From contig JACQJP010000032.1 of the NCBI GenBank assembly GCA_016204975.1, forward strand, positions 1 to 61,709: 61,709 nt of DNA, read 5' to 3'. Origin of the DNA: Elusimicrobiota bacterium (lineage in GTDB: Bacteria > Elusimicrobiota > Elusimicrobia > JACQJP01). Shown in pieces: positions 10,446 to 53,217 of the stretch. The translations under genes were made by a program, and so were the position numbers. The notes beneath the pieces are model-generated. The model ran no database searches. It had not been told where the DNA came from and was given only the letters and a program-made list of their open reading frames with translations. Position 1 is the stretch's first letter. Each line of letters starts with the position of its first letter.

Positions 10446-11302
10446 TGCCCGCCTGCCTGCTTGGGATTCTAGCACCCTCCGCAGCGCTTCGGGTACCAGC
10501 CGGGCTCGCAGAGCTCGCCAGCGTCCTAGCACTGTCGCTTTTCTTTTTTAGTTGCGGTTCGCAGGAGTTGGCGGAGAATGTTCCCCCGCCGGTCCGCATC
10601 CTCATCGATCCGGGACATGGGGGATATGATCCCGGCGCGATGCGCAAGATTGAAGGCCAGTGGGTTCGGGAGAAGCAGGTAGCCTTGAGCATCTCTTTGA
10701 ATCTGGCAGAGCGTTTCCAGAAAGATTCCCGTTTTCTGGTTTCCCTCACCCGCTATGGAGACAGCCACCTCTCTCTTTACAGACGCTCCTCGATGGCGCA
10801 CCGGGAAAGGCCGGATCTTTTCGTCTCCGTCCACTTAAACGCCGCCGGCAGCCGCCACAAGCAGGGGATAGAGATCTTCGTGCATTCCGATTATCCTATG
10901 AACTCCCGGGGGCGCCGGGTCCGCCGCTATTCCCCTTGCGATGAGGATCGGACCAAGAAGGTGCTGCCCCTGTCGCCTGCTGAGATGCGCCGCCAGTGGA
11001 ACCGGGAGGCCTCCTTGGCGGGGCATCAGATTCAGAAGGCTTTGCGGGAGGAGACGGGGATGCGGAATATCTGGCTCAAGAAGCGGGATTTCTTCGTATT
11101 GCGCTGTGTGCCGGCTCCGGCGGTTCTGATGGAGTTGGGTTTTTTGTCCAACCCCAAAGACGCGGAGAGAATTGTAGAGGGCCGTTTTCGGGAGCAGTTG
11201 GTGAATGGAATCTATCGGGGGATTCTTGCTTATTTGGAGCAAAGATCCTCGCAGTCGCGGGAGGCTTCCGTCTCCGGAGCCCAGGGACCAGAACCGGGGT
11301 AA
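10445..11302 (+). CDS. N-acetylmuramoyl-L-alanine amidase (Amidase_3), lipoprotein
   Basis: ATG 10445 overlaps the queE stop (ATGA-type). Lipobox-like FFFSC. ILIDPGHGGYDPGA..DLFVSVHLNA..ELGFLSN. The signal peptide carries a Family-2 repeat. Confidence 0.85.
   Translation: MPACLLGILAPSAALRVPAGLAELASVLALSLFFFSCGSQELAENVPPPVRILIDPGHGGYDPGAMRKIEGQWVREKQVALSISLNLAERFQKDSRFLVSLTRYGDSHLSLYRRSSMAHRERPDLFVSVHLNAAGSRHKQGIEIFVHSDYPMNSRGRRVRRYSPCDEDRTKKVLPLSPAEMRRQWNREASLAGHQIQKALREETGMRNIWLKKRDFFVLRCVPAPAVLMELGFLSNPKDAERIVEGRFREQLVNGIYRGILAYLEQRSSQSREASVSGAQGPEPG
10469..10532 (-). repeat. Family-2 57-nt mini-element, copy a (inside amidase signal-peptide coding region)
   Basis: ctagcaccctccgcagcgcttcgggtaccagccggg..ccagcgtcctagcac. 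ctagcac at 10469 and 10526 (57 nt apart). Confidence 0.85.
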
Positions 11303-11499: not shown

Positions 11500-12384
11500 A
11501 TGGTGATTTTTTCTTTCATTCTTCTTTTTGCAGCCACCTTGCAGAGCTCGGGGGCGGAGGAAGCGCCAGGGGTGCGTGCCGAGCTTTGGGCGTCAGTCGC
11601 TCAGGCCCAGGATTTTGGGCGCCTTTCCCCAGAAACCCTCTCCGGCTGGAGGGGAGCGGCTGTCCACCTGGAAGAGCGCCGGTTGCGGCGTCCGGTCCGC
11701 ATCGTCATTGACCCCGGGCACGGGGGATTTTTCCCGGGCGCCCAGGGAAAGAAGAGAGCGGGGCAGGAGCGCACCCTGGAGAAAGACGTCAATCTTCGGT
11801 ATGCGCTCACGCTGTATGCCCTTCTCAAGGAGGATGCTCGCTTCGCGCCCTATTTAACCCGCAGCGGGGATGAGACGGTGCTTTTAGTGGAGCGTGTGGA
11901 GTTTGCCGTTCAAAAACAGGCGGATATGTTTATTTCCCTGCATGCCAACGGGAGATATCCCGAAGCTCATCCTCAGGTCAACGGCGGGGTGGAGATTTAT
12001 GTCTTGTCTGCGCAGATGAAGAATTTGGAGTTGTGCGACAATGAGCGGGAGAAGCGGGCGCTCCGAAAAATCCTTCCGGATATTCCGGATCGGGGGATTC
12101 CCCTTCCCGGAGCCGAGTTGAGGCTGCTCAATGTCCAAGCGGTGGAAAGGCTTCAGGGGGTTTTTGCGGAAAGGCTTCGGCCCCTGGTGGGGGAGATTCG
12201 GGTCCTGCGCCGGGATCACTTCGTGCTGCGCTGCGCCCCGATGCCTTCGGTCTTGGTGGAGATGGGCTTTTTGACCAACCCGATGGAGGAGGGGCGGCTG
12301 CTGGAGGACCGCTTTCGAACCTCTTTTACCTACCTGCTCTATCGTTCCCTGGTCCGGTATTTCTTTGAGCCCTCATCCCCTTAG
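11500..12384 (+). CDS. N-acetylmuramoyl-L-alanine amidase (Amidase_3)
   Basis: Signal peptide MVIFSFILLFAATLQSSGA, then IVIDPGHGGFFPGA..MFISLHANG..EMGFLTN. The track start GTG 11488 lies inside a terminator stem, so ATG 11500 is preferred. Confidence 0.85.
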   Translation: MVIFSFILLFAATLQSSGAEEAPGVRAELWASVAQAQDFGRLSPETLSGWRGAAVHLEERRLRRPVRIVIDPGHGGFFPGAQGKKRAGQERTLEKDVNLRYALTLYALLKEDARFAPYLTRSGDETVLLVERVEFAVQKQADMFISLHANGRYPEAHPQVNGGVEIYVLSAQMKNLELCDNEREKRALRKILPDIPDRGIPLPGAELRLLNVQAVERLQGVFAERLRPLVGEIRVLRRDHFVLRCAPMPSVLVEMGFLTNPMEEGRLLEDRFRTSFTYLLYRSLVRYFFEPSSP

Positions 12385-14130
12385 AGGGGGCGGTCCGGGG
12401 CGTCCGAATCGGCGGGCCAACTCCGACCGGGAAAGGGTCAGGAGGCTGGGTCGGCCGTGGGGACACGAGAGGCTGTTTTGGCACCGGGCCAGGTCCTCCA
12501 GGAGTTGCAGCGCTTCTTTTTCGGCAAGCGGGTCGTGGGCTTTGACGGCTGCCCGGCAGGCCAGGCCGGCCAGGTATTCGCCCCGCTCCTCTGCCAGGGC
12601 CGGGAGGCTCCCCAGAGACTCACAGATCGCCTCTAGGAATTTTTCCAGCTCCATATCCTTGGAAAAAAAAACCGCCGGCACGCCTTCCGCGCTCCACGCT
12701 CGAGGTCCTCGGGGACGGAGCTCAAAACCCATTCGGGTGGCCCACTCCAGATGGTCCTGTAGTTTTTGAGCCTGGGAAGCACTCGTTTCCCATAAGACGG
12801 GAACGAGGAGCTTCTGGACCGGAATCTGTCCGCGGCGGGCTTGGGCGAGATACCTCTCAAAGAGTACGCGTTCCGCCGCCGCGTGCTGGTCCATCAGGCA
12901 GAGTCCGCCTTGGGATTCCCAGACCAGGTAGGTTTTCTCAATGGGTCCGAGGAACCGGAAGGGGGGGCGGTACCAGTCCGGGGAGGTTTCGGTCGCAGGA
13001 CCCAAAGGGAGGAGGGGGCCTTCTTGGACGCAAGCTCTCAGCGAAGGGGCTGCGGAGGGTACCGGATCCCAGCGTGTAGGTATCAAGGGAGCGGTCTTTC
13101 TTTCTTTTTCGAGCGTGGCGAGGACAGCCCTCAGGACGTAGTCATGGACGGCTCTTTCCTCTCTAAAGCGGACCTCCCTTTTGGCGGGGTGGACATTGAC
13201 GTCGAGTTGGAGGGGGTCTATCTCCAAAAAAAGCGCCCCCTGGGGGCGCAGATCCTGTCGGTGCAGGCGCCGGTAGGCTTCCAGCAGGGCGTGCTGCAAA
13301 AGACGCGAGAAGATGGGGCGCCGGTTCACAAACCAAAACAGATGCCCTCTTCGGGCTTGTCCCGAATGGATGGGTGCCAGCAAGCCGAAGAAGCGAAGGG
13401 GGTGACTCTGGGAAAGAAATGGGATCAGCGGCTCCAGGGCTCTGGTTCCCAGGAGCGCCTCCGCTCTTTTTCTAAAGGGGTCCATCGAAAAGGGGTCGCC
13501 CTTTTTCCCTTGCGGGGCCAGGCGGAGGATGGATCTTTGGTCGCCGTCAAAATCCAGGCGGAGCCAGGGATGGGCCAGGGCGGTTTCTTCCGCGATGCGC
13601 AGCAGATGGCTTTTTTCGGTCGCCTCGCTCTTGAGGAACTTGGCCCGAGCGGGAGTGTTGAAGAACAGGCCTTGGACCTCCACCGCCGTTCCCTTTTTGG
13701 GCGGGGCCTCCCTTTCGAAGAGGATTTTGGGTCCCTTCCGCGTGATCTGCCACCCGGTGGGGGCTTGGGCGACGCAGCTGGTGAGGGTGAAGTGGGAGAT
13801 GGAGGCGATGGCGGGAAGGGCTTCCCCGCGAAACCCGAAGGTTTGAAGCTGCTCTAAGTCACCGAGCGATCGAATTTTGCTGGTGGCGTGTCTCTGCAGG
13901 GCCAGGCGGCATTCCTCCGGGGGCATTCCGCATCCGTCGTCGCTGACCCGGATGCGCTTTTTTCCCGCTTCCTCAATGGAGATTTGGATGTGGGCGGCTC
14001 CCGCATCCAGGGAATTTTCCAGGAGCTCCTTTAGAACGGAGGCGGGCCTTTCCACCACCTCCCCGGCCGCTATCTGGGAGACTGTTTCTTCCGAAAGGGG
14101 ACGTATCCTGGTTACTGTGGATTGTTCCAT
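12373..14130 (-). CDS. mutL: DNA mismatch repair protein MutL
   Basis: GHKL ATPase N-terminus (IAAGEVVERPASVLKELLENSLDAG) and C-terminal dimerisation/endonuclease region. Start overlaps the mutS stop. Confidence 0.93.
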   Translation of the reverse strand: MEQSTVTRIRPLSEETVSQIAAGEVVERPASVLKELLENSLDAGAAHIQISIEEAGKKRIRVSDDGCGMPPEECRLALQRHATSKIRSLGDLEQLQTFGFRGEALPAIASISHFTLTSCVAQAPTGWQITRKGPKILFEREAPPKKGTAVEVQGLFFNTPARAKFLKSEATEKSHLLRIAEETALAHPWLRLDFDGDQRSILRLAPQGKKGDPFSMDPFRKRAEALLGTRALEPLIPFLSQSHPLRFFGLLAPIHSGQARRGHLFWFVNRRPIFSRLLQHALLEAYRRLHRQDLRPQGALFLEIDPLQLDVNVHPAKREVRFREERAVHDYVLRAVLATLEKERKTAPLIPTRWDPVPSAAPSLRACVQEGPLLPLGPATETSPDWYRPPFRFLGPIEKTYLVWESQGGLCLMDQHAAAERVLFERYLAQARRGQIPVQKLLVPVLWETSASQAQKLQDHLEWATRMGFELRPRGPRAWSAEGVPAVFFSKDMELEKFLEAICESLGSLPALAEERGEYLAGLACRAAVKAHDPLAEKEALQLLEDLARCQNSLSCPHGRPSLLTLSRSELARRFGRPGPPPLRG

Positions 14131-16640
14131 GGTTCTTTGAAGGGCAGGGAGCGCTCAAGATGGGAGGCGGGCTCTGCCCGCTTTTCCTCCAGTTTCTGGA
14201 GGATCTCCCAGGCGCGTCCGATGAGACTTTTGGGAAGGCCGGCCAGCTCCGCCACGTGGATTCCGTAGGAGCGGTCCGCGGGCCCCGGGGCGATTTTATA
14301 TAGAAAAAGGATTTCAGTCTTTCCGCTCTCTTTCGTCCACTCCCGAACCCCTACGTGGACGTTGCGGATTCTAGGGTAGATCTCCGCCAGTTCCGTCAGC
14401 TCAAAGTAGTGGGTGGCAAAGAGGACCTTGGGGCCTGACCGACAGCCTTCCTTTTCCCAGGTGCGGTAGAGGTGCTCCAATACCGCCCAGGCGATGGAGA
14501 TGCCGTCGTAGGTGGAGGTTCCTCGTCCCACCTCATCTAATAGGAGGAGGCTTCTGGGGGTGGCGCTCTGGAGAATCGAAGCGGTCTCGCGCATCTCCAC
14601 CATAAAGGTGGACTCCCCTCGGGCAATGGCGTCCTGGGCTCCGATGCGTGTCAGGATTTGATCCACCAAGCCGATCCGGGCAAAGCGCGCCGGCACAAAG
14701 CATCCCATCTGAGCCAGCAGGACGATCAGGGCGTTTTGCCTAAGATAAGTGCTTTTTCCGGACATGTTGGGGCCGGTCAAGACGAGAATCTGCTTTTGAG
14801 AGCCGTCTAGGAGCAGATCGTTGGGCACGAAGGGAGCTCCGGCCAGAGACTGCTCGACTGTGGGATGGCGGCCATCCTGGATATCCAAAAGGGGGCCTTC
14901 CTCCAGCTTCGGCTTGACGTAGTTGTTTTCCTGGCTCACTTGGGCCAGACTGGCCAGGACGTCCAGGGTGGCCAGGTTTTGGGCCAGGGTCTTGAGGGGT
15001 TTTAGCTTGCAGAGAACCTCTTGGGCCAGTCTCCTCCAGAGCTCCCCCTCCAGGCGATGGATTTTTTCTTCGGCCCCTAGAATTTTGGTTTCCATCTCCT
15101 TCAGTTCCGGGGTGAGGAAACGTTCCGCATTCACCAGGGTTTGTTTGCGCTCGTAGTTTTTGGGCACCTTGGAAAGGTGCGCGCGGGTCACCTCCAGGTA
15201 ATATCCGAAAACCGAATTGTACCCCACTCTCAAAGAGGGGATCTTGGTGCGGGCCCTTTCTTGAGCCTCCAGGCCGGCTATCTGGCGCTGGCCCTCTCCA
15301 GCGGCTCGGCGGGCCTCGTCTAGGGCCGGGTCCCAGCCGTCCTGGAAGATCCCACCGTCTGAGAGTTTGGCTGGAGGATTTTCCACCAGGGCGCGGCTGA
15401 GCCGTGCCTGGAGGGTCTGAAGCTCCCCCAGAAGTTCCGGATCAAGGAATTTTACGGTCGTTTCCGTGGCGAGGTTTTTGGCGGAGAGGATTTGAAGAGA
15501 GCTTTGGATCTCCGGGATAGAGTTCAGGGTCTTTCGCAAACCCACCAGGTCCCTCGGCGAGGCGCTGCCGTTTGCCAGGCGGGAGAGGATGCGCTCGATG
15601 TCGTAGGTTTGAGACAGGGTTTCTTGTACCCGCTTTCTTTCGGAGGCCTCCTCCATCAGGCACTCCACCCAGTTTTGCCTTGCTTCCAGGGCTTGGAGAT
15701 CGCAGAGAGGATGGGACATCCAGTCCTTCATCTTCCTGGAGCCTACGGCGGTTCGGGTGGTATCTAAGACGCGGAAAAGGGCCTCCAGCTCCAATGTTTG
15801 CATGGCAGACTCGTCCATCTGTAGGTGGCGCTTGAGATGGCGCCACTGCGGTTGGGGAAGGTGGGGGGCCAGGGAGGGTTGGTTTTCCAAGACGTAGCCC
15901 CGCAGGAGACGGCAGGCCTTCGCCGCCAGGGGGCGGTTTTCCAAAAATGTGGGCAGCTCCGTGGGAAAGCTCTGAGTGGGGGGGACCTTGGCTTCAGAAA
16001 TTGTACAGCGGGGCGTGAGGGACTGGAGCTGCTTTTTCAATTCTTCCGGGGCCTGGAGTCCTTCCTCCAGGAGAACCTCGGCGGGTTTGAGGCGCACGAT
16101 TTCGGAAAGGAGAAGCCGCCATTGCGGGTCCCGGTGTTCTTCGGCGGTCCAGAAGTCGTAGGTGGAGACATCCATGGTGGCCATCCCCCAGCCCAGCCCT
16201 TCTTGGAGGCAGAGGCCCACCAGAAAGTTGGCTCCTCTCTGGGGAACAATCTCCTGCTCCACCGCCGTCCCGGGGGTCAGCACCCGCAGCACTTGCCGGC
16301 GGACGATGCCTACCGCCTGCGCGGGGTCTTCGGTTTGTTCGCAGACGGCCACCTTTTCACCCGCATCCAGCAGGCGGCGGATGTAGTTGGAAGAGGCATG
16401 GAAGGGGACCCCGCACATGGGCACGCCTTGCCGGGAGGTCAAAACCAGCTGCAGGATGCGGCTGGCCCTGCGGGCGTCCTCCCCGAACATCTCGTAGAAG
16501 TCCCCCAGGCGGAAAAAGAGGATGGCGTGGGGGTATTGGGCCTTGATCTTTTGATACTGCTGCATGAGGGGGGTGTCCGGCGATCCTTGCGGTATTTTGC
16601 GTGTCAGCTGGGTTTGTTTGGCGCGAGGCATATTTTCCAT
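14112..16640 (-). CDS. mutS: DNA mismatch repair protein MutS
   Basis: TPLMQQY..FFRLGDFYEMF mismatch-binding motif, Walker A GPNMSGKST, and DEVGRGTSTYDG. Confidence 0.95.
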   Translation of the reverse strand: MENMPRAKQTQLTRKIPQGSPDTPLMQQYQKIKAQYPHAILFFRLGDFYEMFGEDARRASRILQLVLTSRQGVPMCGVPFHASSNYIRRLLDAGEKVAVCEQTEDPAQAVGIVRRQVLRVLTPGTAVEQEIVPQRGANFLVGLCLQEGLGWGMATMDVSTYDFWTAEEHRDPQWRLLLSEIVRLKPAEVLLEEGLQAPEELKKQLQSLTPRCTISEAKVPPTQSFPTELPTFLENRPLAAKACRLLRGYVLENQPSLAPHLPQPQWRHLKRHLQMDESAMQTLELEALFRVLDTTRTAVGSRKMKDWMSHPLCDLQALEARQNWVECLMEEASERKRVQETLSQTYDIERILSRLANGSASPRDLVGLRKTLNSIPEIQSSLQILSAKNLATETTVKFLDPELLGELQTLQARLSRALVENPPAKLSDGGIFQDGWDPALDEARRAAGEGQRQIAGLEAQERARTKIPSLRVGYNSVFGYYLEVTRAHLSKVPKNYERKQTLVNAERFLTPELKEMETKILGAEEKIHRLEGELWRRLAQEVLCKLKPLKTLAQNLATLDVLASLAQVSQENNYVKPKLEEGPLLDIQDGRHPTVEQSLAGAPFVPNDLLLDGSQKQILVLTGPNMSGKSTYLRQNALIVLLAQMGCFVPARFARIGLVDQILTRIGAQDAIARGESTFMVEMRETASILQSATPRSLLLLDEVGRGTSTYDGISIAWAVLEHLYRTWEKEGCRSGPKVLFATHYFELTELAEIYPRIRNVHVGVREWTKESGKTEILFLYKIAPGPADRSYGIHVAELAGLPKSLIGRAWEILQKLEEKRAEPASHLERSLPFKEPWNNPQ

Positions 16641-28032: not shown

Positions 28033-29121
28033 ATGCCGCGCAGAGTCCGATGGGTGGTGGGGATGTTTTTGCTCCTGGGGCCGCCGGAGCTGGGCTGGAC
28101 CCAGGATGTGGGGGAGTCCCTGCGGTTTCAACAGCGGGTCCCACAGGCCGGGCCCCAAGGGCGTGTGGAGCCGGCACTCCCCGACCGTAGTCGGGTCCCA
28201 CAGGCCGGGGCCCCTCCGGGGACGGTGGTGTTCGAGACGGTGGCCAGCGACCCTCCAGTCGCTGCCTTTAACGCCCTTTTGTTTCACGGAATCCTCACCA
28301 CCGACCGGATTGAATTTCAGGCCTCGATCCAAACAGAGGATGGAACTTGGAGCCCGTGGAAAAAAGCCTATCTGAAGCGCCACCCCAACGGCCGTTTTTG
28401 GGCCCGGGTCCGCTGGAAACAGATGCACCAGGCTCCGGTCAAGCTCCGGGCGGTCAGTCTGGGCATCTCCGGCGAGTGGACCCTGCAGGTGTTGGATGTA
28501 GAGGTTTTCTTACATGAAGAAGGAGATTCTTCGGGTTCCGGGCTTTTGCCCTCATTGCAATCCCTGCCCCCTTCCTGGATCCTCCGGGATCGGTGGGGGG
28601 CGTATCCTCCCCGCGAGCCCTATGAGCCTCACGTGCCGGATCGGATCACGCTGCACCATACCGCGGGACTTCAGACCTTTGCCTTGGAAGATTCCCTGGC
28701 GGAGGTGCGCTGGATCCAGGATTTCCACCAAAACGGCAGGGGCTGGAACGACATCGGCTACCACTTTTTGGTGGATGGGGAGGGAAGGGTTTTTCAGGGA
28801 AGGCCGGTTCAGGCGGTGGGAGCCCACGTCAAGGACGGCAATGCCGGAAACGTGGGGATTGCGCTGTTGGGATATTTTCACGCTCCGGTTTCGGATCAAC
28901 CCAGCGAGCTTCAGCTTCAGGGATTTATCCAGGCTGGGCGTTGGGTGGTGCGGAGTTTTGGGGCAGGCTCGGAGACTTTGCGGGGACACAGGGACTACAA
29001 CCCCACGGCCTGCCCGGGCGATTTTCTCTACCCCCGCCTGGAATTTTTGAGGGAGCAGCTTCATTGGGATCTTATTCCCAGTTTTGACCCCACCGCTTTT
29101 TCCTTTCTCTTGCCTAAATAA
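28033..29121 (+). CDS. N-acetylmuramoyl-L-alanine amidase (Amidase_2 / PGRP fold)
   Basis: ITLHHTAG..WNDIGYHFLVDGEGRVFQGR..GAHV..GNVGIALLG..LRGHRDYNPTACPG. A sense Family-1 repeat sits after the signal peptide (RVPQAGPQGRVEPALPDRSRVPQAG). Confidence 0.88.
   Translation: MPRRVRWVVGMFLLLGPPELGWTQDVGESLRFQQRVPQAGPQGRVEPALPDRSRVPQAGAPPGTVVFETVASDPPVAAFNALLFHGILTTDRIEFQASIQTEDGTWSPWKKAYLKRHPNGRFWARVRWKQMHQAPVKLRAVSLGISGEWTLQVLDVEVFLHEEGDSSGSGLLPSLQSLPPSWILRDRWGAYPPREPYEPHVPDRITLHHTAGLQTFALEDSLAEVRWIQDFHQNGRGWNDIGYHFLVDGEGRVFQGRPVQAVGAHVKDGNAGNVGIALLGYFHAPVSDQPSELQLQGFIQAGRWVVRSFGAGSETLRGHRDYNPTACPGDFLYPRLEFLREQLHWDLIPSFDPTAFSFLLPK
28136..28208 (+). repeat. Family-1 mini-element, copy B (sense inside Amidase_2 CDS)
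   Basis: A 16-nt direct repeat gggtcccacaggccgg at 28136 and 28193 (57 nt apart) brackets the conserved core. Confidence 0.92.
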
Positions 29122-29509: not shown

Positions 29510-29530
29510 ACGGAGTTCCTACTGAAAGAA

Positions 29531-29593
29531 GGCCTGTGGGACCCGACTACGGTCGGGGAGTGCCGGCTCAACACGCCTTTGGGGCCCGGCCTG
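29531..29593 (-). repeat. Family-1 mini-element, copy C (intergenic, 21 nt upstream of receiver gene 29123..29509, sense to it)
   Basis: The reverse complement matches the consensus. GGCCTG repeats at 29531 and 29588 are 57 nt apart. Confidence 0.92.
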
Positions 29594-29717
29594 ATGCCTC
29601 GGCTTCCAGAGTCTAGAATAGCCGATTTGAAATCCTACAATCAAGCTGGTGCCGGTTTCTTGCACCACCCGACCTTAGCGGGCCCCGTGTCTCCGAGGCG
29701 GATAAAGTCTCACGCCA

Positions 29718-46270: not shown

Positions 46271-49200
46271 ATGCTGTGGGGCAGACAGATGCTCAGCGTC
46301 CAGTACGGCCCCTTTCACCCCATCTTGGAGGAAGCCCTTGTGGAGAAGCTGCAGAGCCTCAAGGCGGCAGATCCTTTTTGCCGGGTGGTGGTCGTGGCGC
46401 CTTCCCGAAGGCTCTGTGACCGGCTCCAGAGGCTTTTGGCCGTAGAGAAGGGGCTGGCCGTTTTCAACGTCCATTTCCATACCTTCTACAGCCTCGCTTT
46501 CCAGATTATCCGGGAGGGGGACCCTCGTCCGGTTACCTTGCTCTCGGACCGCCTGTTCCATGACTTTTTGGTGGATCACTTGTTGGAGGAAGATTTCCGG
46601 CCTCCGGGGTCCCACAGGCCGGGCCCCAAAGGCGTGTGGAGCCGGCACTCCCCGACCGTAGTCGGGTCCCGCAGGCCGAAGGGCTTTTTGCCCGCTTTGC
46701 GCGCCAGCCTCAAGGACTTGGTAGATTCCGGAGTGGAGCCGGAGAGGGTCCGGGAGCTTTTGGCCGAGACCGAGGAGTCCGGCAGGCCTCTGGTTCGGCT
46801 GGACCCGGAGGAGGCGAGGCGGCTTTTGGAGCTTCTGGATCTGCAGGAGCGCTACCAAAAGCATTTGGAGGAGCTGGGCGTGACTGTTCCCAGCGGCATG
46901 ATCCGGCTGGCGACGGAGCTGGCGCCGGGCTCTGCGTACCTGAAAGAATTTCAGGAGATTCTCTATTACGGTTTTTATGATCTGACCGGCATCCAGACCG
47001 ATTTTTTTGAGGCGGTCTCCAGACACCATCCGGCGACCTTGTTTTTTCCCTACCGCCATGGACACCCGGCCTTCGCTTTTGCCCGGAGGTTTTTCGAGGA
47101 GAAGCTTCATGCTGCGGGCCGAGTCCCCATCGCCCTGCAACCAGATGAGGGACGGCCTCCCGCGCCGGCACCCTCCGCAGGGCTGCGAGTACCGGCCGGG
47201 AGGCCAAAGGCCTCCAGCGTGCCGGTTCGGGTGTGGAATGCGGCGGGTCCCCGGGAGGAGTCCTGGACGGTGGCCAAGGAAATCTTAAAACTGGTTCGAG
47301 GAGGCTGCGCCTTTCACCAAATCGGTATTGTGGCGCGTACCCTGGAGCCCTACCGGATGGTTTTGCGCCAGGTCTTGGAGGAAAACCGGATACCGGCCTG
47401 CTTTTCCTCCGGAAGGCCTCTGCTGAGCCATCCGCTGCCCCGTTTTTGTTTCTCCCTGCTTTCTTTTAAGCAGAGGGCCTTTCCGGCCATCCTTTTTGAG
47501 GACCTGCTTTCCTCCCCTTATCTTTGCACACAGAGTTGGGGAGATCCGGAAAGACAGAAGCTCCTCCGGCGTGGCTTCAAGAGGCTGGCACAGAGGCTTC
47601 GGATTCAGCGCGGGTGGCTTCAATGGGAAGGCAAGGTGAGGAGCTTTCTGGAAGGCGGACTCTCTTTAGAAGGGGAGGAGCCGGAGCGGGAGGGCCGCCT
47701 GCTTTGGGAGTGGATCCGGGAGGTCCGCCGGAATCTGATCTGGGCTTTGCAGGAGCCAGCCCCTTGGAAGGTCCGAATTCAGCGTGCTCAACAGGTTTTG
47801 GAAAGGTACTTCCGGCTTCCTGCAGATGCGACCGATTTGGAGAAGCGTCTTTGGGACGGGACCTGTGCGACGCTTCAGGAGCTGGAGCCATTGGAGCTTC
47901 TGGGCATCGGTGCGGAGGAAGAGGTTTTTTTGGAAGCCTGGGAGGATAAGCTAAAGGCCGCAGAGTTTCAGGAGTTTCCAGGGGAGAATTTGGGAGTTCG
48001 GGTTTTGGATGCCATGTCCGCTCGGGGGGAGAGCTTTGCCTATCTTTTTTTGATTGGACTTCAGGAGGGGCTTTTCCCGCGCAAGGTGCGGGAGGACCCC
48101 TTGCTGCGCGATTCGGTGCGCCGGGTGCTGAGCTCCCCTGGAGGGTACGGGATTCGCCCCAAGCTGGAGGGATATGAGGAGGAGCGGCTCTTGTTTCATC
48201 TGCTGACTTCTTCAGCCCGGAAGGGGCTCTTCTGCATCTATTCCCGTTCTGACGAGGAAGGGAGGGCAAAGATTGCCTCCGTCTACCTGCAGGAACTGGC
48301 GCGCACCAGAGACATCTGTTTGGAGGATTCCAAGAAAAATAGAAGCATCTTGAAGCAGCCCCTGGCTAAGATTCGAGGAGAGCCTTGGGAGGTCTTGAGT
48401 CCCAAGGAGGTTTCCTTGCGGCTGGCCTTTTCCGGGCAATCCCCGGGCGGTTTTTTGGAAAGCCTGGGGAAGGAGGCGGAGCTCTTTCGCGGCCCGGCTG
48501 AGGCCTTGGAGGCCATGAATACCTACGGAAATCCCGGCGAATTTGATGGCCGGATCGGTCCCCCCCGACCGTTTCTAAAGGCGCTTCGCCGCTCCGGGCT
48601 CTCTCCCAGCGCCCTGGCCAGTTTGGCGCGTTGCCCCTTTCAGTTTTTTGCCTCCCGGGTGTTGAAGTTGGGGGAGGTGGAGGAGCCCCAGGAGCCGGGG
48701 ACCCTGTCTTCAAAGGATACCGGAAAAATCTACCATCGGGTTCTGGAACTTTTTTATCGGAAGCTTTTGGAGCAGGGATACTGGAAGGGGAAACGCTCCG
48801 GGTTTCCCCGGCAGGTTTTTGAAGAGTGCGAACAGCAGGTATTTCGTCAATACCACTGGAAGAGTCTGGGATTGTATCCCGTTTTGTGGGAGGTTTTGCG
48901 CGAACGGATGCTTGCGCATTTGAGAGAATTTCTCCTTGGGGACATTCAGAGGGTTCGGGAGAGTGGGCATCTTCCTGTATATTTTGAGCAGGAGTTTTCG
49001 GCGTCTTCTTCCCAAACCCTCTTGGGAAAGGGCCGGGAGCTTCTTTTGCACGGTTTTCCGGACCGGGTGGACTTAGATGAGGTCCGGAGGCGTTTTTGGG
49101 TCTTTGATTACAAGACGAGGGGTAAGAAGGGAAATCTCTTGGCGGAGGTTTTACGGGGCAACCAGCTCCAGCCTTTACTTTACCTGGAAATTCTTCTGGC

Positions 49201-49555
49201 TGCCTTGAAGCGGGAGAAGGGTCCGGGCTGGGAGCCTCAGGGGACTGCCTTTTTAATTTTGGAGCAGGACCCCAACGGCTCGGAGGCAAAAACCATCCAA
49301 GAGATCCCTTGGCCCGAGTTTCGGGCCTGGCGGACCCGGGCGGCCAGGCATCTGGAAATTTTTCTAGGGCTTTTGTTTCGGGGGGAGTTTTGGATCTACC
49401 CCAAGGAGGGGGCGGGGGGGCACTGCCAGTGGTGCGCTTTCTCGCGGAGTTGCCGGAAGGGCCATTGGGCCACCCGGCTGCGCGCGAGATGCGGAGCCGG
49501 CTTTCAGGGGTTTCATGCGGTGAAGAATTTTTCTTTCAAAAAAGTTCTATCGTGA
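46271..49555 (+). CDS. addB: AddB-like helicase-nuclease subunit B (PD-(D/E)XK nuclease with Fe-S cysteines)
   Basis: 1094 aa. C-terminal nuclease motif ..RVDLDEV..WVFDYKT..LQPLLY.. and cysteines CPFQFF..CQWCAFSRSC. Overlaps addA (GTGA). Carries one Family-1 and one Family-2 repeat in frame. Confidence 0.85.
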   Translation: MLWGRQMLSVQYGPFHPILEEALVEKLQSLKAADPFCRVVVVAPSRRLCDRLQRLLAVEKGLAVFNVHFHTFYSLAFQIIREGDPRPVTLLSDRLFHDFLVDHLLEEDFRPPGSHRPGPKGVWSRHSPTVVGSRRPKGFLPALRASLKDLVDSGVEPERVRELLAETEESGRPLVRLDPEEARRLLELLDLQERYQKHLEELGVTVPSGMIRLATELAPGSAYLKEFQEILYYGFYDLTGIQTDFFEAVSRHHPATLFFPYRHGHPAFAFARRFFEEKLHAAGRVPIALQPDEGRPPAPAPSAGLRVPAGRPKASSVPVRVWNAAGPREESWTVAKEILKLVRGGCAFHQIGIVARTLEPYRMVLRQVLEENRIPACFSSGRPLLSHPLPRFCFSLLSFKQRAFPAILFEDLLSSPYLCTQSWGDPERQKLLRRGFKRLAQRLRIQRGWLQWEGKVRSFLEGGLSLEGEEPEREGRLLWEWIREVRRNLIWALQEPAPWKVRIQRAQQVLERYFRLPADATDLEKRLWDGTCATLQELEPLELLGIGAEEEVFLEAWEDKLKAAEFQEFPGENLGVRVLDAMSARGESFAYLFLIGLQEGLFPRKVREDPLLRDSVRRVLSSPGGYGIRPKLEGYEEERLLFHLLTSSARKGLFCIYSRSDEEGRAKIASVYLQELARTRDICLEDSKKNRSILKQPLAKIRGEPWEVLSPKEVSLRLAFSGQSPGGFLESLGKEAELFRGPAEALEAMNTYGNPGEFDGRIGPPRPFLKALRRSGLSPSALASLARCPFQFFASRVLKLGEVEEPQEPGTLSSKDTGKIYHRVLELFYRKLLEQGYWKGKRSGFPRQVFEECEQQVFRQYHWKSLGLYPVLWEVLRERMLAHLREFLLGDIQRVRESGHLPVYFEQEFSASSSQTLLGKGRELLLHGFPDRVDLDEVRRRFWVFDYKTRGKKGNLLAEVLRGNQLQPLLYLEILLAALKREKGPGWEPQGTAFLILEQDPNGSEAKTIQEIPWPEFRAWRTRAARHLEIFLGLLFRGEFWIYPKEGAGGHCQWCAFSRSCRKGHWATRLRARCGAGFQGFHAVKNFSFKKVLS
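46607..46678 (+). repeat. Family-1 mini-element, copy D (sense inside addB)
   Basis: gggtcccRcaggccg at 46607 and 46664 (57 nt apart). Translated as GPKGVWSRHSPTVVGS. Confidence 0.92.
47164..47229 (-). repeat. Family-2 mini-element, copy f (inside addB)
   Basis: gccgg at 47164 and 47221 (57 nt apart). Stem GGAGGCC aaa GGCCTCC. Translated as ..APSAGLRVPAGRPKASSVP... Confidence 0.88.
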
Positions 49556-52500
49556 GCACCCGTCGCAGCCCCCGGGTTTTGACGGACGAGGAGAGCCGTT
49601 GGGCGGCCCGCACGCACTTGGATGGGAACGCCGTGGTGGAGGCCGGCGCGGGGACGGGCAAGACGACGCTGCTGGTGGATCGTCTCATCTTTCTTCTGCT
49701 GGGCCGGCGCTGTCAGATTTCCCGGGCGGTGGCCCTGACCTTCACCGAGAAGGCCGCCGGAGAACTGAAGCGCAGGCTCGCGCAGACCTTGGAGGCGATA
49801 GTCCGTTGGGCGGGGCAGACCAATGGGGTATGCGATCCTCATCTGCTGCAGATCGTGCAGAGACTGCAATCGCAGTGGCGGCGCTCCAAACAGGAGATTG
49901 AGGTGTCGGCCCAGAGGGCGTTGCTAGAGATGGATCGGGCCTCCATCGGAACCCTCCATAGTTTCGCCGCAGATTTGCTGCGCCTGTACCCCTTGGAGTC
50001 GGGGATCTCCCCGGAGTTTCAGGTGGATGAGGGAAGGTCCTTTGAGGAGTTTTTCAGGTCGCAGTGGAGTCTTTGGCTGGACCGCGAGTTGGGGGAGGAG
50101 GCCCCGCGTAAGGGGTTGTGGAAAAAGCTTTTGCCGGAGGTGGGTCTGGAGGATTTGGCCTGCTTGGCCAGAGATTTGTGTCAGCTCAGAAGCTTGGAGG
50201 GGGTTGCCTCGTTGGAAAAAATTCGAGAAGCATTTGAGGTGGTGGGACCTTTTGTGGAAAGGTTTCGGCGAGAGCTTCTCCATAAGGACTGGCTCTCTTT
50301 CGATGGGCTCCTGGTCCGGGCCCGGGAGCTTTTGGTCGGCCATCGGACGGTGCGGGAGGATTTGAAGCGGACTTTTGAGGCCATTCTGATAGATGAGTTT
50401 CAGGACACCGATCCCCTCCAGGGAGAGATTCTGTTTTTCCTGTGCGAGAAAAGAGGGCAATCGGCGCGCTGTTGGGAGGAGGTGAATCTGGAGCCCGGAA
50501 AACTTTTTGTGGTGGGAGACCCCAAGCAGTCCATCTACCATTTTCGGGGGGCCGACATCGTCGCCTACCGCCGGTTCACCAGGCAGATGATTCGGCAAGG
50601 CTCGGAGCTTTTGCACCTGCAGGTCAATTTCAGAAGTCCGGCCGGCATTTTGGATCCGGTGCATGAGATATTTTCCAAAATCATGGACGGCCGCTCCCCC
50701 TATCAGGCGGATTATATCCCCATCTATCCCCATAAGAACTCCGAGCCTGTGGGACCCGACTACGGTCGGGGAGTGCCGGCTCCACACGCCTTTGGGACCC
50801 GGCCTGTGGAAGGTTCTGGGGTGGAGTGGGTTCAGGTGAGCTCCTCAAACCAGGCGGCGCCGGTCTCTGCGGAGGCGACCCGTCAGGCAGAGGCGGCCTG
50901 GATTGCGGAGTGGATTTCCTCCCACTGCTCCAAAAAAATTCTCTTCCGGGATGTGGCCATCCTTTTTAGAACCTCCACGCCTCACCCGCCTTATCTGGAG
51001 GCCTTGAGAGGCGCCGGCATCCCCTATGTAGTGACGGGGGAAAAGTATTTTTATTCGGCTCAGGAGGTGGTGGATTTTCAGAATCTTTTGTGTGCCTTGG
51101 AGGATCCCTATGATCCTGTCTCCCTGGTGGGTCTTTTGCGCTCGCCTTTGGTGGGCTTGACCGACTTGCAACTTTATGAACTCAGCCAAAAGGGCGCTTT
51201 ATGCTATCTTTCCGATCCGCCGAAAAACCTCTCTTGCAGCGCGCGCACAGCGGCTTTCTACCGCATGCTTCGGAGCTTCCACGCCCTCGTGGGCAGGATG
51301 CCCCTGAGCGAGTTGGTCCATCGCCTCTTAAATGATACCCATCTTGTGGAGCTTTGTTCCCTGGCCTACCATCGGGAGCAGACCGCCTCTAACCTCACCA
51401 AGCTTTTGCGCCTGGCTTCTGAGGCCGGGGAGTTTGCCGGCCGAACCCTTCGGGAGTTTGCCGGGGCTTTAGAGGAGGCGGTGGCCGGGCTGGAGGAGGA
51501 GGGGGAAAGCCCTCTGGCGGATGAGAACTTCAATGCGGTCCGAGTTTTAACGGTCCATAAAGCCAAGGGGTTGGAGTTTCCCGTCATTTTCCTTCCCAAT
51601 CTTTCGGCTGCGGTTTCCGGCTCCCGGCAGAGCCCATCCTGCCTTTGGGAGGAGGCCTCCCGGAGGGTGGGTTTTCGGTTGAGGCAGGCGGGGGTGGCCA
51701 CTCCTCAGATGCTCCTTTTAGAACAGGAAAAGAAGCTACGGGAGAAGGAAGAGGAGGTCCGGATTTTGTATGTGGCCATGACCCGCGCCCGGCACAAGCT
51801 CTTTCTCTTATCCAATGAGCATAAGGCCCCCCAGGGCTCTTTGAGCGGCCTGATCCAGAAGGCGGGGACTTTTCGGGCGGCTCGCGTCCATCGGATTTCC
51901 GTGCAGGAGCTAGGCAAGCCGAAGAGTGGAAGACAAGCAAAGGAAAAAACCGATTCTTCACAGGCCGGACCCCAAAGGCGTGTTGAGCCGGCACTCCCCG
52001 ACCGTAGTCGGGTCCCACAGGCTGGGTGGAGGCGTCTGGCTTTGGATTGGAAAGCGCGAGAGAAGAGATGGGCGGCGGTACAGGAGGCCCCGTGCTTTCT
52101 AAGTCCTACGGCGCTTTCCGAAAAGTCTCTCCGGGTCCCACAGGCCGGGCGGACTGGAACGGGATCCGGGCTTTTGGTGGGCCAGCTGTGCCATGCGGTG
52201 CTGGAGGGGTGGGATTTTGGATCCTCCCCTGCAAAACTCAAGGACCCGATCTTGCTAAAGGAGAAAATTCACAAGGCTCTGACGCAGATAGAGCGGGGGC
52301 GTTTTGGAGAGCCGGGGCTGGAGAAGGCTCTTGGAGAGGAGGCGGAGGAGATTCTGCACCGCTTTTTTGAATCCGAGGTTTACCGGCGGATCGCAGGCTC
52401 TCGTATTTTGGGGCGCGAGGTGCCCTTTCTATATCCCTATGGAAACCAGGTGGTCCGGGGCAGTATGGATCTGCTTTATGAGTGGCGGGGCCGCTACAGG

Positions 52501-52728
52501 GTGGCTGATTATAAGACGGACCGCGTGCCGGACCCCAAAGGCGTGTTGAGCCGGCACTCCCCGACCGTAGTCGGGTCCCACAGGCCGGCATTCGAGATGC
52601 GCGCTTGGGCGGGGGAGTACCGGCAGCAGCGCCGGATGTATCTGGAGGCGGTCCGGAGGGGGACCGGGTGGAAGGATTGGAAGTTTGAGGTCATTTTTTT
52701 AAGGTTGGGCAAGAGCGTGATTTTATAG
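49552..52728 (+). CDS. addA: AddA / UvrD-family helicase-nuclease subunit A
   Basis: GTG start overlapping the addB stop. Walker A AGAGTGKTT, DEFQDT, VGDPKQSIY, ..TVHKAKGLEFP.., and C-terminal RecB nuclease ..GSMDLLYE..VADYKTD... Three Family-1 repeats plus one solo repeat end, all in frame. Confidence 0.9.
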   Translation: MSTRRSPRVLTDEESRWAARTHLDGNAVVEAGAGTGKTTLLVDRLIFLLLGRRCQISRAVALTFTEKAAGELKRRLAQTLEAIVRWAGQTNGVCDPHLLQIVQRLQSQWRRSKQEIEVSAQRALLEMDRASIGTLHSFAADLLRLYPLESGISPEFQVDEGRSFEEFFRSQWSLWLDRELGEEAPRKGLWKKLLPEVGLEDLACLARDLCQLRSLEGVASLEKIREAFEVVGPFVERFRRELLHKDWLSFDGLLVRARELLVGHRTVREDLKRTFEAILIDEFQDTDPLQGEILFFLCEKRGQSARCWEEVNLEPGKLFVVGDPKQSIYHFRGADIVAYRRFTRQMIRQGSELLHLQVNFRSPAGILDPVHEIFSKIMDGRSPYQADYIPIYPHKNSEPVGPDYGRGVPAPHAFGTRPVEGSGVEWVQVSSSNQAAPVSAEATRQAEAAWIAEWISSHCSKKILFRDVAILFRTSTPHPPYLEALRGAGIPYVVTGEKYFYSAQEVVDFQNLLCALEDPYDPVSLVGLLRSPLVGLTDLQLYELSQKGALCYLSDPPKNLSCSARTAAFYRMLRSFHALVGRMPLSELVHRLLNDTHLVELCSLAYHREQTASNLTKLLRLASEAGEFAGRTLREFAGALEEAVAGLEEEGESPLADENFNAVRVLTVHKAKGLEFPVIFLPNLSAAVSGSRQSPSCLWEEASRRVGFRLRQAGVATPQMLLLEQEKKLREKEEEVRILYVAMTRARHKLFLLSNEHKAPQGSLSGLIQKAGTFRAARVHRISVQELGKPKSGRQAKEKTDSSQAGPQRRVEPALPDRSRVPQAGWRRLALDWKAREKRWAAVQEAPCFLSPTALSEKSLRVPQAGRTGTGSGLLVGQLCHAVLEGWDFGSSPAKLKDPILLKEKIHKALTQIERGRFGEPGLEKALGEEAEEILHRFFESEVYRRIAGSRILGREVPFLYPYGNQVVRGSMDLLYEWRGRYRVADYKTDRVPDPKGVLSRHSPTVVGSHRPAFEMRAWAGEYRQQRRMYLEAVRRGTGWKDWKFEVIFLRLGKSVIL
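50746..50809 (-). repeat. Family-1 mini-element, copy E (antisense inside addA)
   Basis: cctgtgg at 50746 and 50803 (57 nt apart). Translated as VGPDYGRGVPAPHAFGTRPV. Confidence 0.92.
51959..52025 (+). repeat. Family-1 mini-element, copy F (sense inside addA)
   Basis: cacagg at 51959 and 52016 (57 nt apart). Translated as GPQRRVEPALPDRSRVPQAG. Confidence 0.92.
52133..52149 (+). repeat. Solo Family-1 terminal segment inside addA
   Basis: gggtcccacaggccggg alone, with no core. Translated as RVPQAG, in frame. Confidence 0.6.
52527..52588 (+). repeat. Family-1 mini-element, copy G (sense inside the addA nuclease domain)
   Basis: gccgg at 52527 and 52584 (57 nt apart). Translated as DPKGVLSRHSPTVVGSHRP, immediately after the DYKTD nuclease motif. 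Confidence 0.92.
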
Positions 52729-52758
52729 AGCCGCGCTAATTTCATAGAATAGTTTTAC

Positions 52759-52818
52759 CAGTCCGGGCCCCAAAGGCGAGTTGATCCGGCACTCCCCGAC
52801 CGTAGTCGGGTCCCACAG
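52759..52818 (+). repeat. Family-1 mini-element, copy H (intergenic, 12 nt upstream of receiver gene 52831..53217, sense to it)
   Basis: cagtccgggccccaaaggcgagttgatccggcactccccgaccgtagtcgggtcccacag. The most diverged copy, but the hairpin is intact. Confidence 0.88.
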
Positions 52819-52830
52819 ACAGAGGCGCCA

Positions 52831-53217
52831 ATGAAGAAACGTAGAATTTTTGTGGTGGACGATGATCCGGAGATCCTAAAACTCATCCACTCGGTTTTGG
52901 AAGAGCATGGGTATGAGGTGGAGAGTTTTGATCGGGCTGCCTCCGCCTATGAGGAGCTAAAGAGGAAATCCGCGGATTTGGTCTTTCTGGATGTGGATAT
53001 GCCGGGAACGGACGGCTTGGAGCTTTGCCGCATCTTGAAGAATGACGCCGCATTCCAGAGCACACACATCATTATGCTGACGGCCCATGAAGATATGAAG
53101 ATTGTGGAGCGCGCCTTTAATTTCGGGGCCGAGGATTATCTGGTCAAGCGGATCTTCAACGAGGATTTACTGCTACAGAAGGTCCAGCGGGCCTTCCAGC
53201 CACACCTGCCGCAATAG
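52831..53217 (+). CDS. Stand-alone response-regulator receiver (CheY-like)
   Basis: 128 aa. IFVVDDD..DLVFLDVDMPGTDG..IIMLTA..DYLVK. Confidence 0.9.
   Translation: MKKRRIFVVDDDPEILKLIHSVLEEHGYEVESFDRAASAYEELKRKSADLVFLDVDMPGTDGLELCRILKNDAAFQSTHIIMLTAHEDMKIVERAFNFGAEDYLVKRIFNEDLLLQKVQRAFQPHLPQ

Follow-up and report, generated by a model that had tools for sequence, protein, structure and literature searches.

Short hairpin-bearing repeats inserted in frame in the addB and addA genes of a groundwater Elusimicrobiota bacterium

Rickettsia palindromic elements (RPEs) are in-frame palindromic repeats with a length of about 100–150 bp (Ogata et al. 2000, 2002; summarized in PMC10969869). Intragenic in-frame copies have also been described for transposable elements of the miniature inverted-repeat type (MITEs), including ERIC, BOX, QMITE1 of Coxiella, and the MITEs of Anabaena (PMC10969869). 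Contig JACQJP010000032.1, from the metagenome-assembled genome (MAG) of an uncultured groundwater member of the Elusimicrobiota, contains two families of short repeats, copies of which are located inside addB and addA, the genes encoding the AddAB recombination nuclease. The window analyzed here is the entire contig, with a length of 61.7 kb and a G+C content of 58%. Together, addB and addA contain six element-derived stretches, which are five copies and one solo end. On balance, the repeats are probably RPE-like selfish elements that are retained in proteins whose length, multi-domain build, and weak constraint allow loops to take up insertions, and local re-insertion may have contributed. 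The two host genes and the copies in and beside them are as follows.

addB, 46271..49555, plus strand: PD-(D/E)XK nuclease subunit of 1094 residues (Pfam PDDEXK_1, E = 1.5e-31)
addA, 49552..52728, plus strand: UvrD-type helicase with RecB-type nuclease, 1058 residues from the GTG at 49552
Family-1 copy D, 46622..46678 (core 46644), plus strand: GPKGVWSRHSPTVVGSRRP, AddB residues 118–136, with a 15-nucleotide repeat of its own right end just before it
Family-2 copy f, about 47161..47225, minus strand: 57-nucleotide unit with an 8-nucleotide terminal direct repeat; about PAPSAGLRVPAGRPKASSV, AddB residues 299–317
Family-1 copy E, 50743..50807 (core 50751), minus strand: GPDYGRGVPAPHAFGTRPV, AddA residues 401–419
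Family-1 copy F, 51960..52024 (core 51990), plus strand: GPQRRVEPALPDRSRVPQA, AddA residues 806–824, in the helicase–nuclease linker
Solo end CGGGTCCCACAGGCCGGGC, 52132..52150, plus strand: 19 nucleotides with the exact sequence in which the right end of the element joins its left start; RVPQAG, AddA residues 861–866
Family-1 copy G, 52531..52587 (core 52553), plus strand: DPKGVLSRHSPTVVGSHRP, AddA residues 994–1012, directly after ADYKTDRVP
Intergenic Family-1 copy, 52758..52822 (core 52788), plus strand: 30 nucleotides past the addA stop codon and 9 nucleotides before the ATG of a receiver gene

All the stretches that an initial annotation of the window had placed in the two genes were located by core matches or sequence. 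The 27-nucleotide core of Family-1, GGCACTCCCCGACCGTAGTCGGGTCCC, has nine matches in the window and none in 100 shuffles. The complete unit is 57 nucleotides long, which corresponds to 19 codons. Within it, CCCGAC and GTCGGG pair perfectly over 6 bp to form a stem that encloses a CGTA loop; for the 64-nucleotide consensus, RNA folding predicts an energy of −25.6 kcal/mol. No stop codon occurs in five of the element's six reading frames, and seven of the nine copies in the window are genic. Because the unit is 19 × 3 nucleotides long and five frames are open, the copies are in frame and stop-free, and an insertion into a gene lengthens the encoded protein instead of truncating it. The initial annotation was correct that all copies in the two genes are in frame; however, this is automatic given the properties of the element. 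At least four registers of the element are in use, three of them inside addAB: GPKGV.SRHSPTVVGS.RP in copies D and G, that of copy F, and GPDYGRGVPAPHAFGTRP in copy E, which is in the reverse orientation.

AddA contains the Pfam domains UvrD-helicase, UvrD_C, and PDDEXK_1, and matches AddA of Bacillus subtilis (PDB 3U44) with E = 9e-51. The motifs EAGAGTGKTT, DEFQDTD, VGDPKQSIY, TVHKAKGLEF, ADYKTD, and QQRRMY are present. The gene pair has the hallmarks of AddAB, with the motifs of a superfamily 1 helicase and a RecB nuclease in AddA, and a RecB nuclease motif together with four Fe-S cysteines (C788, C1052, C1055, and C1061) in AddB. The probable start codon of addA is the GTG at 49552, rather than the TTG at 49309, and it overlaps with the TGA stop codon of addB. 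The resulting overlap of the two genes by GTGA suggests translational coupling.

The two proteins were aligned with 20 AddA and 24 AddB homologues from Elusimicrobiota. The nearest homologues are 36–47% identical, and every homologue with a named source is from the Elusimicrobiota. None of these homologues has the insertions formed by copies D, E, and G, and the spacing of the homologues is regained once the 19 residues are removed at any of the three sites. Without copy G, the distance from D to Y in DYKTDRVP...RY is 14 residues, as it is in the homologues. The fraction of homologues with gaps is 0.9 at copies E and G, and 0.66 in the insert columns of the 24 AddB sequences at copy D. Copy F is located in a hypervariable linker, which is too variable for the copy to be called an insertion. 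Local conservation at the copy sites in AddA is in the 4th–15th percentile (6th–15th for E and 4th–8th for F), that at the solo end is in the 9th–21st, and that at copy D is in the 7th. The bias of the sites towards low conservation has a Fisher-combined P of about 0.03–0.05. Therefore, selection appears still to filter the positions at which copies persist. The helicase motifs, the D...D-Y-K and QxxxY nuclease motifs, and the four Fe-S cysteines of AddB are invariant relative to the homologues, which agrees with the initial description of the motifs as intact. In AddB, which is 36–44% identical to other Elusimicrobiota AddB proteins, the invariant residues include D931 and D946-Y-K948.

The inserts are not products of a chimeric assembly; the flanks of each copy follow the same homologue alignment, and the junctions recur in independent runs. 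Logan contigs of four groundwater sequencing runs contain the locus, and both junctions of each copy were confirmed in them by independent contigs from two groundwater samples. No empty-site form was found in these contigs, which end at each copy and lose rare variants.

AlphaFold2 models of AddA and AddB were built from the homologue alignments, and their mean predicted local distance difference test (pLDDT) scores are 79.3 and 82.0, respectively. In the models, each element-derived stretch coincides with a segment of coil with pLDDT below 50.

AddA coil 397–420: copy E (401–419)
AddA coil 788–822: copy F (806–824)
AddA coil 858–870: solo end (861–866)
AddA coil 997–1011: copy G (994–1012), between the strand 981–988, which ends in ADYKTD, and the QxxxY helix 1012–1021
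AddB coil 110–135: copy D (118–136), between helices 94–109 and 139–153
AddB coil 293–313: copy f (299–317)

On both sides of each stretch the models have confident helices or strands, with the stretch itself predicted as coil, and no such helix or strand is predicted to be broken by one. The models thus place copy G where the initial annotation had put it, between the catalytic lysine motif and the helix containing Q and Y, and no confident helix or strand is predicted to be interrupted by it. Both the structure prediction and the comparison with addAB of relatives, which the initial annotation had proposed as checks, are in line with its alternative suggestion that large multi-domain proteins tolerate loop insertions: the sites are variable stretches and predicted coils, and removal of the inserts restores the homologue spacing.

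The favored reading can be set out as follows. The repeats would belong to two families of selfish elements that are very short, rich in G+C, and equipped with a hairpin. Copies would persist only where 19 added residues are harmless, in length-variable surface loops and inter-domain linkers. In the addB–addA pair, long coding sequence for multi-domain proteins extends over 6.5 kb and offers many such loops; the two genes are probably expressed weakly and not strictly required. The AddAB enzymes are most likely still functional, judging from their motifs and models.

It is highly improbable that addB and addA are instead decaying genes, under relaxed selection or recently inactivated as a pseudogene pair, whose frames stay open since the element brings no stop codons in five of its six frames. 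About 100 residues (A1 columns 267–367) that all 20 homologues have, including a conserved WPKxW motif, are missing from AddA. The gap is at about 50190–50200 of the window, which corresponds to residues of about 213–221, and the junction in the model is the low-confidence segment 215–220. This missing segment would fit decay, as would the overwriting of a semi-conserved part of AddB by copy f, and the open frame is no evidence of function here, given the open frames of the element. However, the 6.4 kb of coding sequence contain no frameshift or stop codon outside the elements, and the helicase, nuclease, and Fe-S residues do not vary from those of the homologues. Furthermore, the bias of the insertion sites towards low conservation indicates that selection still acts, and the models of both proteins are confident.

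The claim of the initial annotation that addAB is a hot spot is weakly supported. Its count of four of the nine Family-1 copies within about 6.5 kb is accurate; however, with random placement, at least four of nine copies fall within some 6.46-kb stretch with P = 0.26. If the downstream intergenic copy is counted, at least five copies are found within 6.55 kb (P = 0.043). Four copies are grouped within 2.1 kb at the addA 3′ end (P = 0.015, with the window size picked post hoc), and half of the gaps between copies are shorter than 1.4 kb (P = 0.03). The clustering is modest, and its center is the 3′ end of addA with the adjoining intergenic copy rather than the addAB pair as a whole. The density of target motifs was rejected as a cause of the load, since GCCGG and CCGG are enriched just 1.3–1.6 times in addAB, which is too little.

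Re-insertion near an existing copy may account for part of the close grouping at the addA 3′ end. That local re-insertion is the explanation in its own right, with new copies landing near existing ones, such as the intergenic one downstream of addA, and the addA cluster a by-product of proximity, is conceivable but unlikely. Such a process is consistent with the presence of four copies and the solo end within the 2.1 kb and with the short gaps between copies, although the window sizes were selected after the data had been seen. Copies F and G, which are 563 nucleotides apart, are the sole pair among the nine with the GGACCCC variant; however, a single common base is thin phylogenetic evidence, and copies D, E, and the copy at 28173 have another variant in common over 18–22 kb. 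Another two copies close to each other are those at 28173 and 29538, and here, too, one of the two is intergenic and 5′ of a CheY-like gene; tandem pairs are found in the genes for Mfd, DprA, and a metallophosphoesterase.

These tandem pairs were identified in a search with a profile of the frame-b peptide, which represents one register of the element, against 1.84 billion representative proteins. The profile matched 16 proteins, 15 of which are from this MAG; proteins of the MAG are present in NCBI, and further proteins of the assembly are tagged HY402_. Mfd (MBI4054759.1; 1121 residues, partial) contains four copies at three sites; at one of these, two copies lie in tandem within the RNA-polymerase-interacting domain (RID). 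The protein still matches Mfd of Escherichia coli with E = 6e-166. In DprA (MBI4054544.1), a tandem pair is located in an inter-domain linker. The other hosts in the MAG are functionally unrelated proteins, namely KdtA, MltA, a PduO-type adenosyltransferase, the SAM-HAT/metallophosphoesterase, an MFS transporter, an amidase, and a glycosyltransferase, together with hypothetical proteins. Per frame-b site, the host proteins average about 520 residues in length, which by a rough inference that relies partly on approximate proteome figures is near the expectation for insertion in proportion to length. A peptide of the frame-a register (AddB 106–147) retrieved only itself from 5.8 billion proteins, in a search in which short peptides fall below significance. 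AddA is not unique, because Mfd is at least as densely loaded. A copy density in other long genes similar to that in addAB, which the initial annotation had named as an argument against a hot spot, was thus found in one case, that of Mfd.

Several observations weigh against the reading that the elements are simply retained where they are tolerated. Because the insert columns are gaps in the alignments, their low pLDDT is circular to some degree. Copy f brings no net gain in length and overwrites a semi-conserved ALGxxLDxLFxP segment, so that it is not a clean loop insertion. In a simulated genome, a window with at least four copies arises by chance with P = 0.09 if there are about 55 copies per 1.5 Mb; at the copy density of this window, the simulated chance is about 1. 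The five other genes of the window that encode at least 600 residues, namely those for PBP2, MutS, aconitase, a 2-oxoacid oxidoreductase subunit, and a 703-residue protein, comprise about 11 kb and hold no Family-1 copies, compared with four in addAB. Gene length by itself therefore does not account for this difference inside the window. Finally, the genes hit more than once (those for AddA, Mfd, and DprA, and that for AddB if copy f is counted) all function in DNA repair or recombination.

The last point bears on the possibility of a true hot spot tied to DNA repair, in which the element would favor entry into, or survival in, genes of DNA-translocating repair proteins such as AddAB, Mfd, and DprA. 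The cause could be that attenuated enzymes favor the element or give rise to a mutator or hyper-recombination background, or it could be some property of the transcription or repair of the loci. We consider such a hot spot quite unlikely. Among the proteins found, only AddA and Mfd have copies at several separate sites, DprA has its tandem pair, and repair genes hold four of the about 14 genic frame-b sites in the MAG; assuming that about 8% of the coding length is devoted to repair, this corresponds to a P of about 0.02 with AddA and about 0.08 without it. However, MutS and MutL, also repair proteins, are encoded in the window by genes that hold no copies, and most hosts are unrelated to repair. 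Every insertion is in a variable loop, away from the catalytic motifs, which is the opposite of what attenuation would produce. Being a repair protein is confounded here with being very long and built of several domains, and the survey covered one register. A connection between the enrichment and the role of AddAB, which the initial annotation had raised, is not supported in the form given, in view of the random-placement result, the load of Mfd, and the empty mutS and mutL, and neither is targeting of AddAB by the element for its function. A bolder form of the idea is very unlikely: that the elements accumulate specifically in the genes for AddA, AddB, Mfd, and DprA, where they would subtly weaken the enzymes and thereby aid their own spread or persistence, for example through less degradation or processing of element DNA intermediates or through a hyper-recombination background. 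If it were true, a selfish element would be remodeling the repair machinery of its host without destroying it.

The genes of the window to which these comparisons refer are the following.

CheY-like receiver gene, 52831–53217, plus strand: downstream of addA
mutL and mutS, 12373–16640, minus strand: adjoining genes without element copies, which serve as a contrast to addAB from inside the window

Copies of Family-1 end in direct repeats, which are CAGGCCG or, in two copies, 15 nucleotides long, and are identical in most copies. With end repeats this uniform, a host-derived duplication, target specificity, and sequence of the element itself are indistinguishable. Copy D and copy B (at 28173) are preceded by a 15-nucleotide direct repeat of the right end of the element, GGGTCCCACAGGCCG, at 46607–46621 and 28128–28142, respectively. 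In addA, the same sequence forms the solo end by itself. If such 15-nucleotide repeats recombined, exactly 57 nucleotides would be excised, with the solo-end sequence left as a scar.

Copy f has a conserved framework in common with the seven other copies of Family-2, which are at 10469, 17936, 18059, 24296, 24693, 32067, and 60562. The flanks of the Family-2 copies are conserved, and the sequence of the internal hairpin stem varies between copies with the pairing mostly kept; the stem of copy f is unlike those of the other seven. This suggests that the Family-2 hairpin is under selection or is produced by a templated mechanism. A known RNA family was rejected, as Rfam has no match for the window. 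No RAYT or IS200/IS605 transposase was found among the subset of the open reading frames of the window that was scanned against Pfam.

In two metagenome runs, words of the Family-1 core are about 1000-fold deeper than the flanking single-copy sequence, which is a measure of depth and not of copy number. The depth indicates that the family is very abundant in the community, in this genome and perhaps in co-occurring ones. A 23-nucleotide core has one match in public genome contigs, in another Elusimicrobia MAG (JACQJM010000172, L001), and no match in public metagenome contigs or viral contigs. All three intergenic Family-1 copies seen are in the sense orientation just 5′ of a response-regulator gene with a receiver domain. 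Those of the window, 52758–52822 and 29530–29594, precede stand-alone CheY-like genes at 52831–53217 on the plus strand and 29509–29123 on the minus strand. The copy in JACQJM010000172 (4243–4295) is about 110 nucleotides upstream of an OmpR-type regulator gene. In the relative L002, response regulators are encoded directly 3′ of addA. The metallophosphoesterase gene contains head-to-tail tandem copies and is apparently split over two contigs exactly there, which indicates that the repeats fragment the assembly.

If the repeats are retained through tolerance, as favored here, they provide a clear and well-documented example from outside Rickettsia of selfish DNA within essential-looking genes. 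Up to four peptides of 19 residues would be tolerated in one large repair enzyme, and one such peptide is three residues away from a catalytic lysine of a RecB-type nuclease. The copies would constitute a natural map of the insertion-tolerant loops of AddAB and Mfd, and would illustrate the way in which micro-elements fragment metagenome assemblies and inflate the apparent novelty of proteins. If a bias towards repair genes were real, it would point to an interaction of a mobile element with the recombination machinery of the host.

The host enzyme resembles AddAB of B. subtilis (PDB 3U44 and 4CEH) in that AddA combines a UvrD-type motor with a RecB nuclease, and AddB combines a nuclease with an Fe-S cluster. 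By contrast, the proteins described here are distant from those of B. subtilis, as the E-value of the AddA match indicates, and the pair holds the six element-derived stretches. Among repeats, REP and REPIN elements are mobilized by RAYT transposases, and repetitive extragenic palindromic (REP) sequences are extragenic by definition. The Elusimicrobiota elements are, like them, short GC-rich hairpin repeats with many copies; assignment to a REP/REPIN–RAYT system was rejected, given the predominantly genic copies in the window and the lack of a RAYT domain in the scanned open reading frames, which represent part of the window. MITEs with intragenic copies are similarly small and non-autonomous and occasionally form translational fusions inside genes. 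However, MITEs are mostly intergenic, whereas the copies described here are mostly genic, and the clear terminal inverted repeats and variable target-site duplications of MITEs are not established for them.

The closest resemblance is to RPEs. Both kinds of element are dispersed, hairpin-forming, and non-autonomous, and are found in frame in many unrelated genes as well as in intergenic regions. Both add a conserved peptide to their host proteins, which is judged to be compatible with the fold of the host protein. The features of an RPE-like kind that were tested are present: many near-identical copies, in-frame positions in unrelated conserved genes, a hairpin, and sites that the models predict to be compatible with the fold. 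Unlike RPEs, the elements are 57 nucleotides long and GC-rich, reside in a free-living groundwater member of the Elusimicrobiota, and have no sequence relationship to RPEs. They also differ in the use of at least four registers, the tandem pairs, the direct repeats of 7–15 nucleotides of their own end, and the presence of up to four copies per gene. Their length, their host, and the lack of a match in Rfam place them outside the Rickettsia families RPE-1 to RPE-10. The kind of element is known from the RPEs of Rickettsia, and the repeats in addB and addA are a new variant of that kind.

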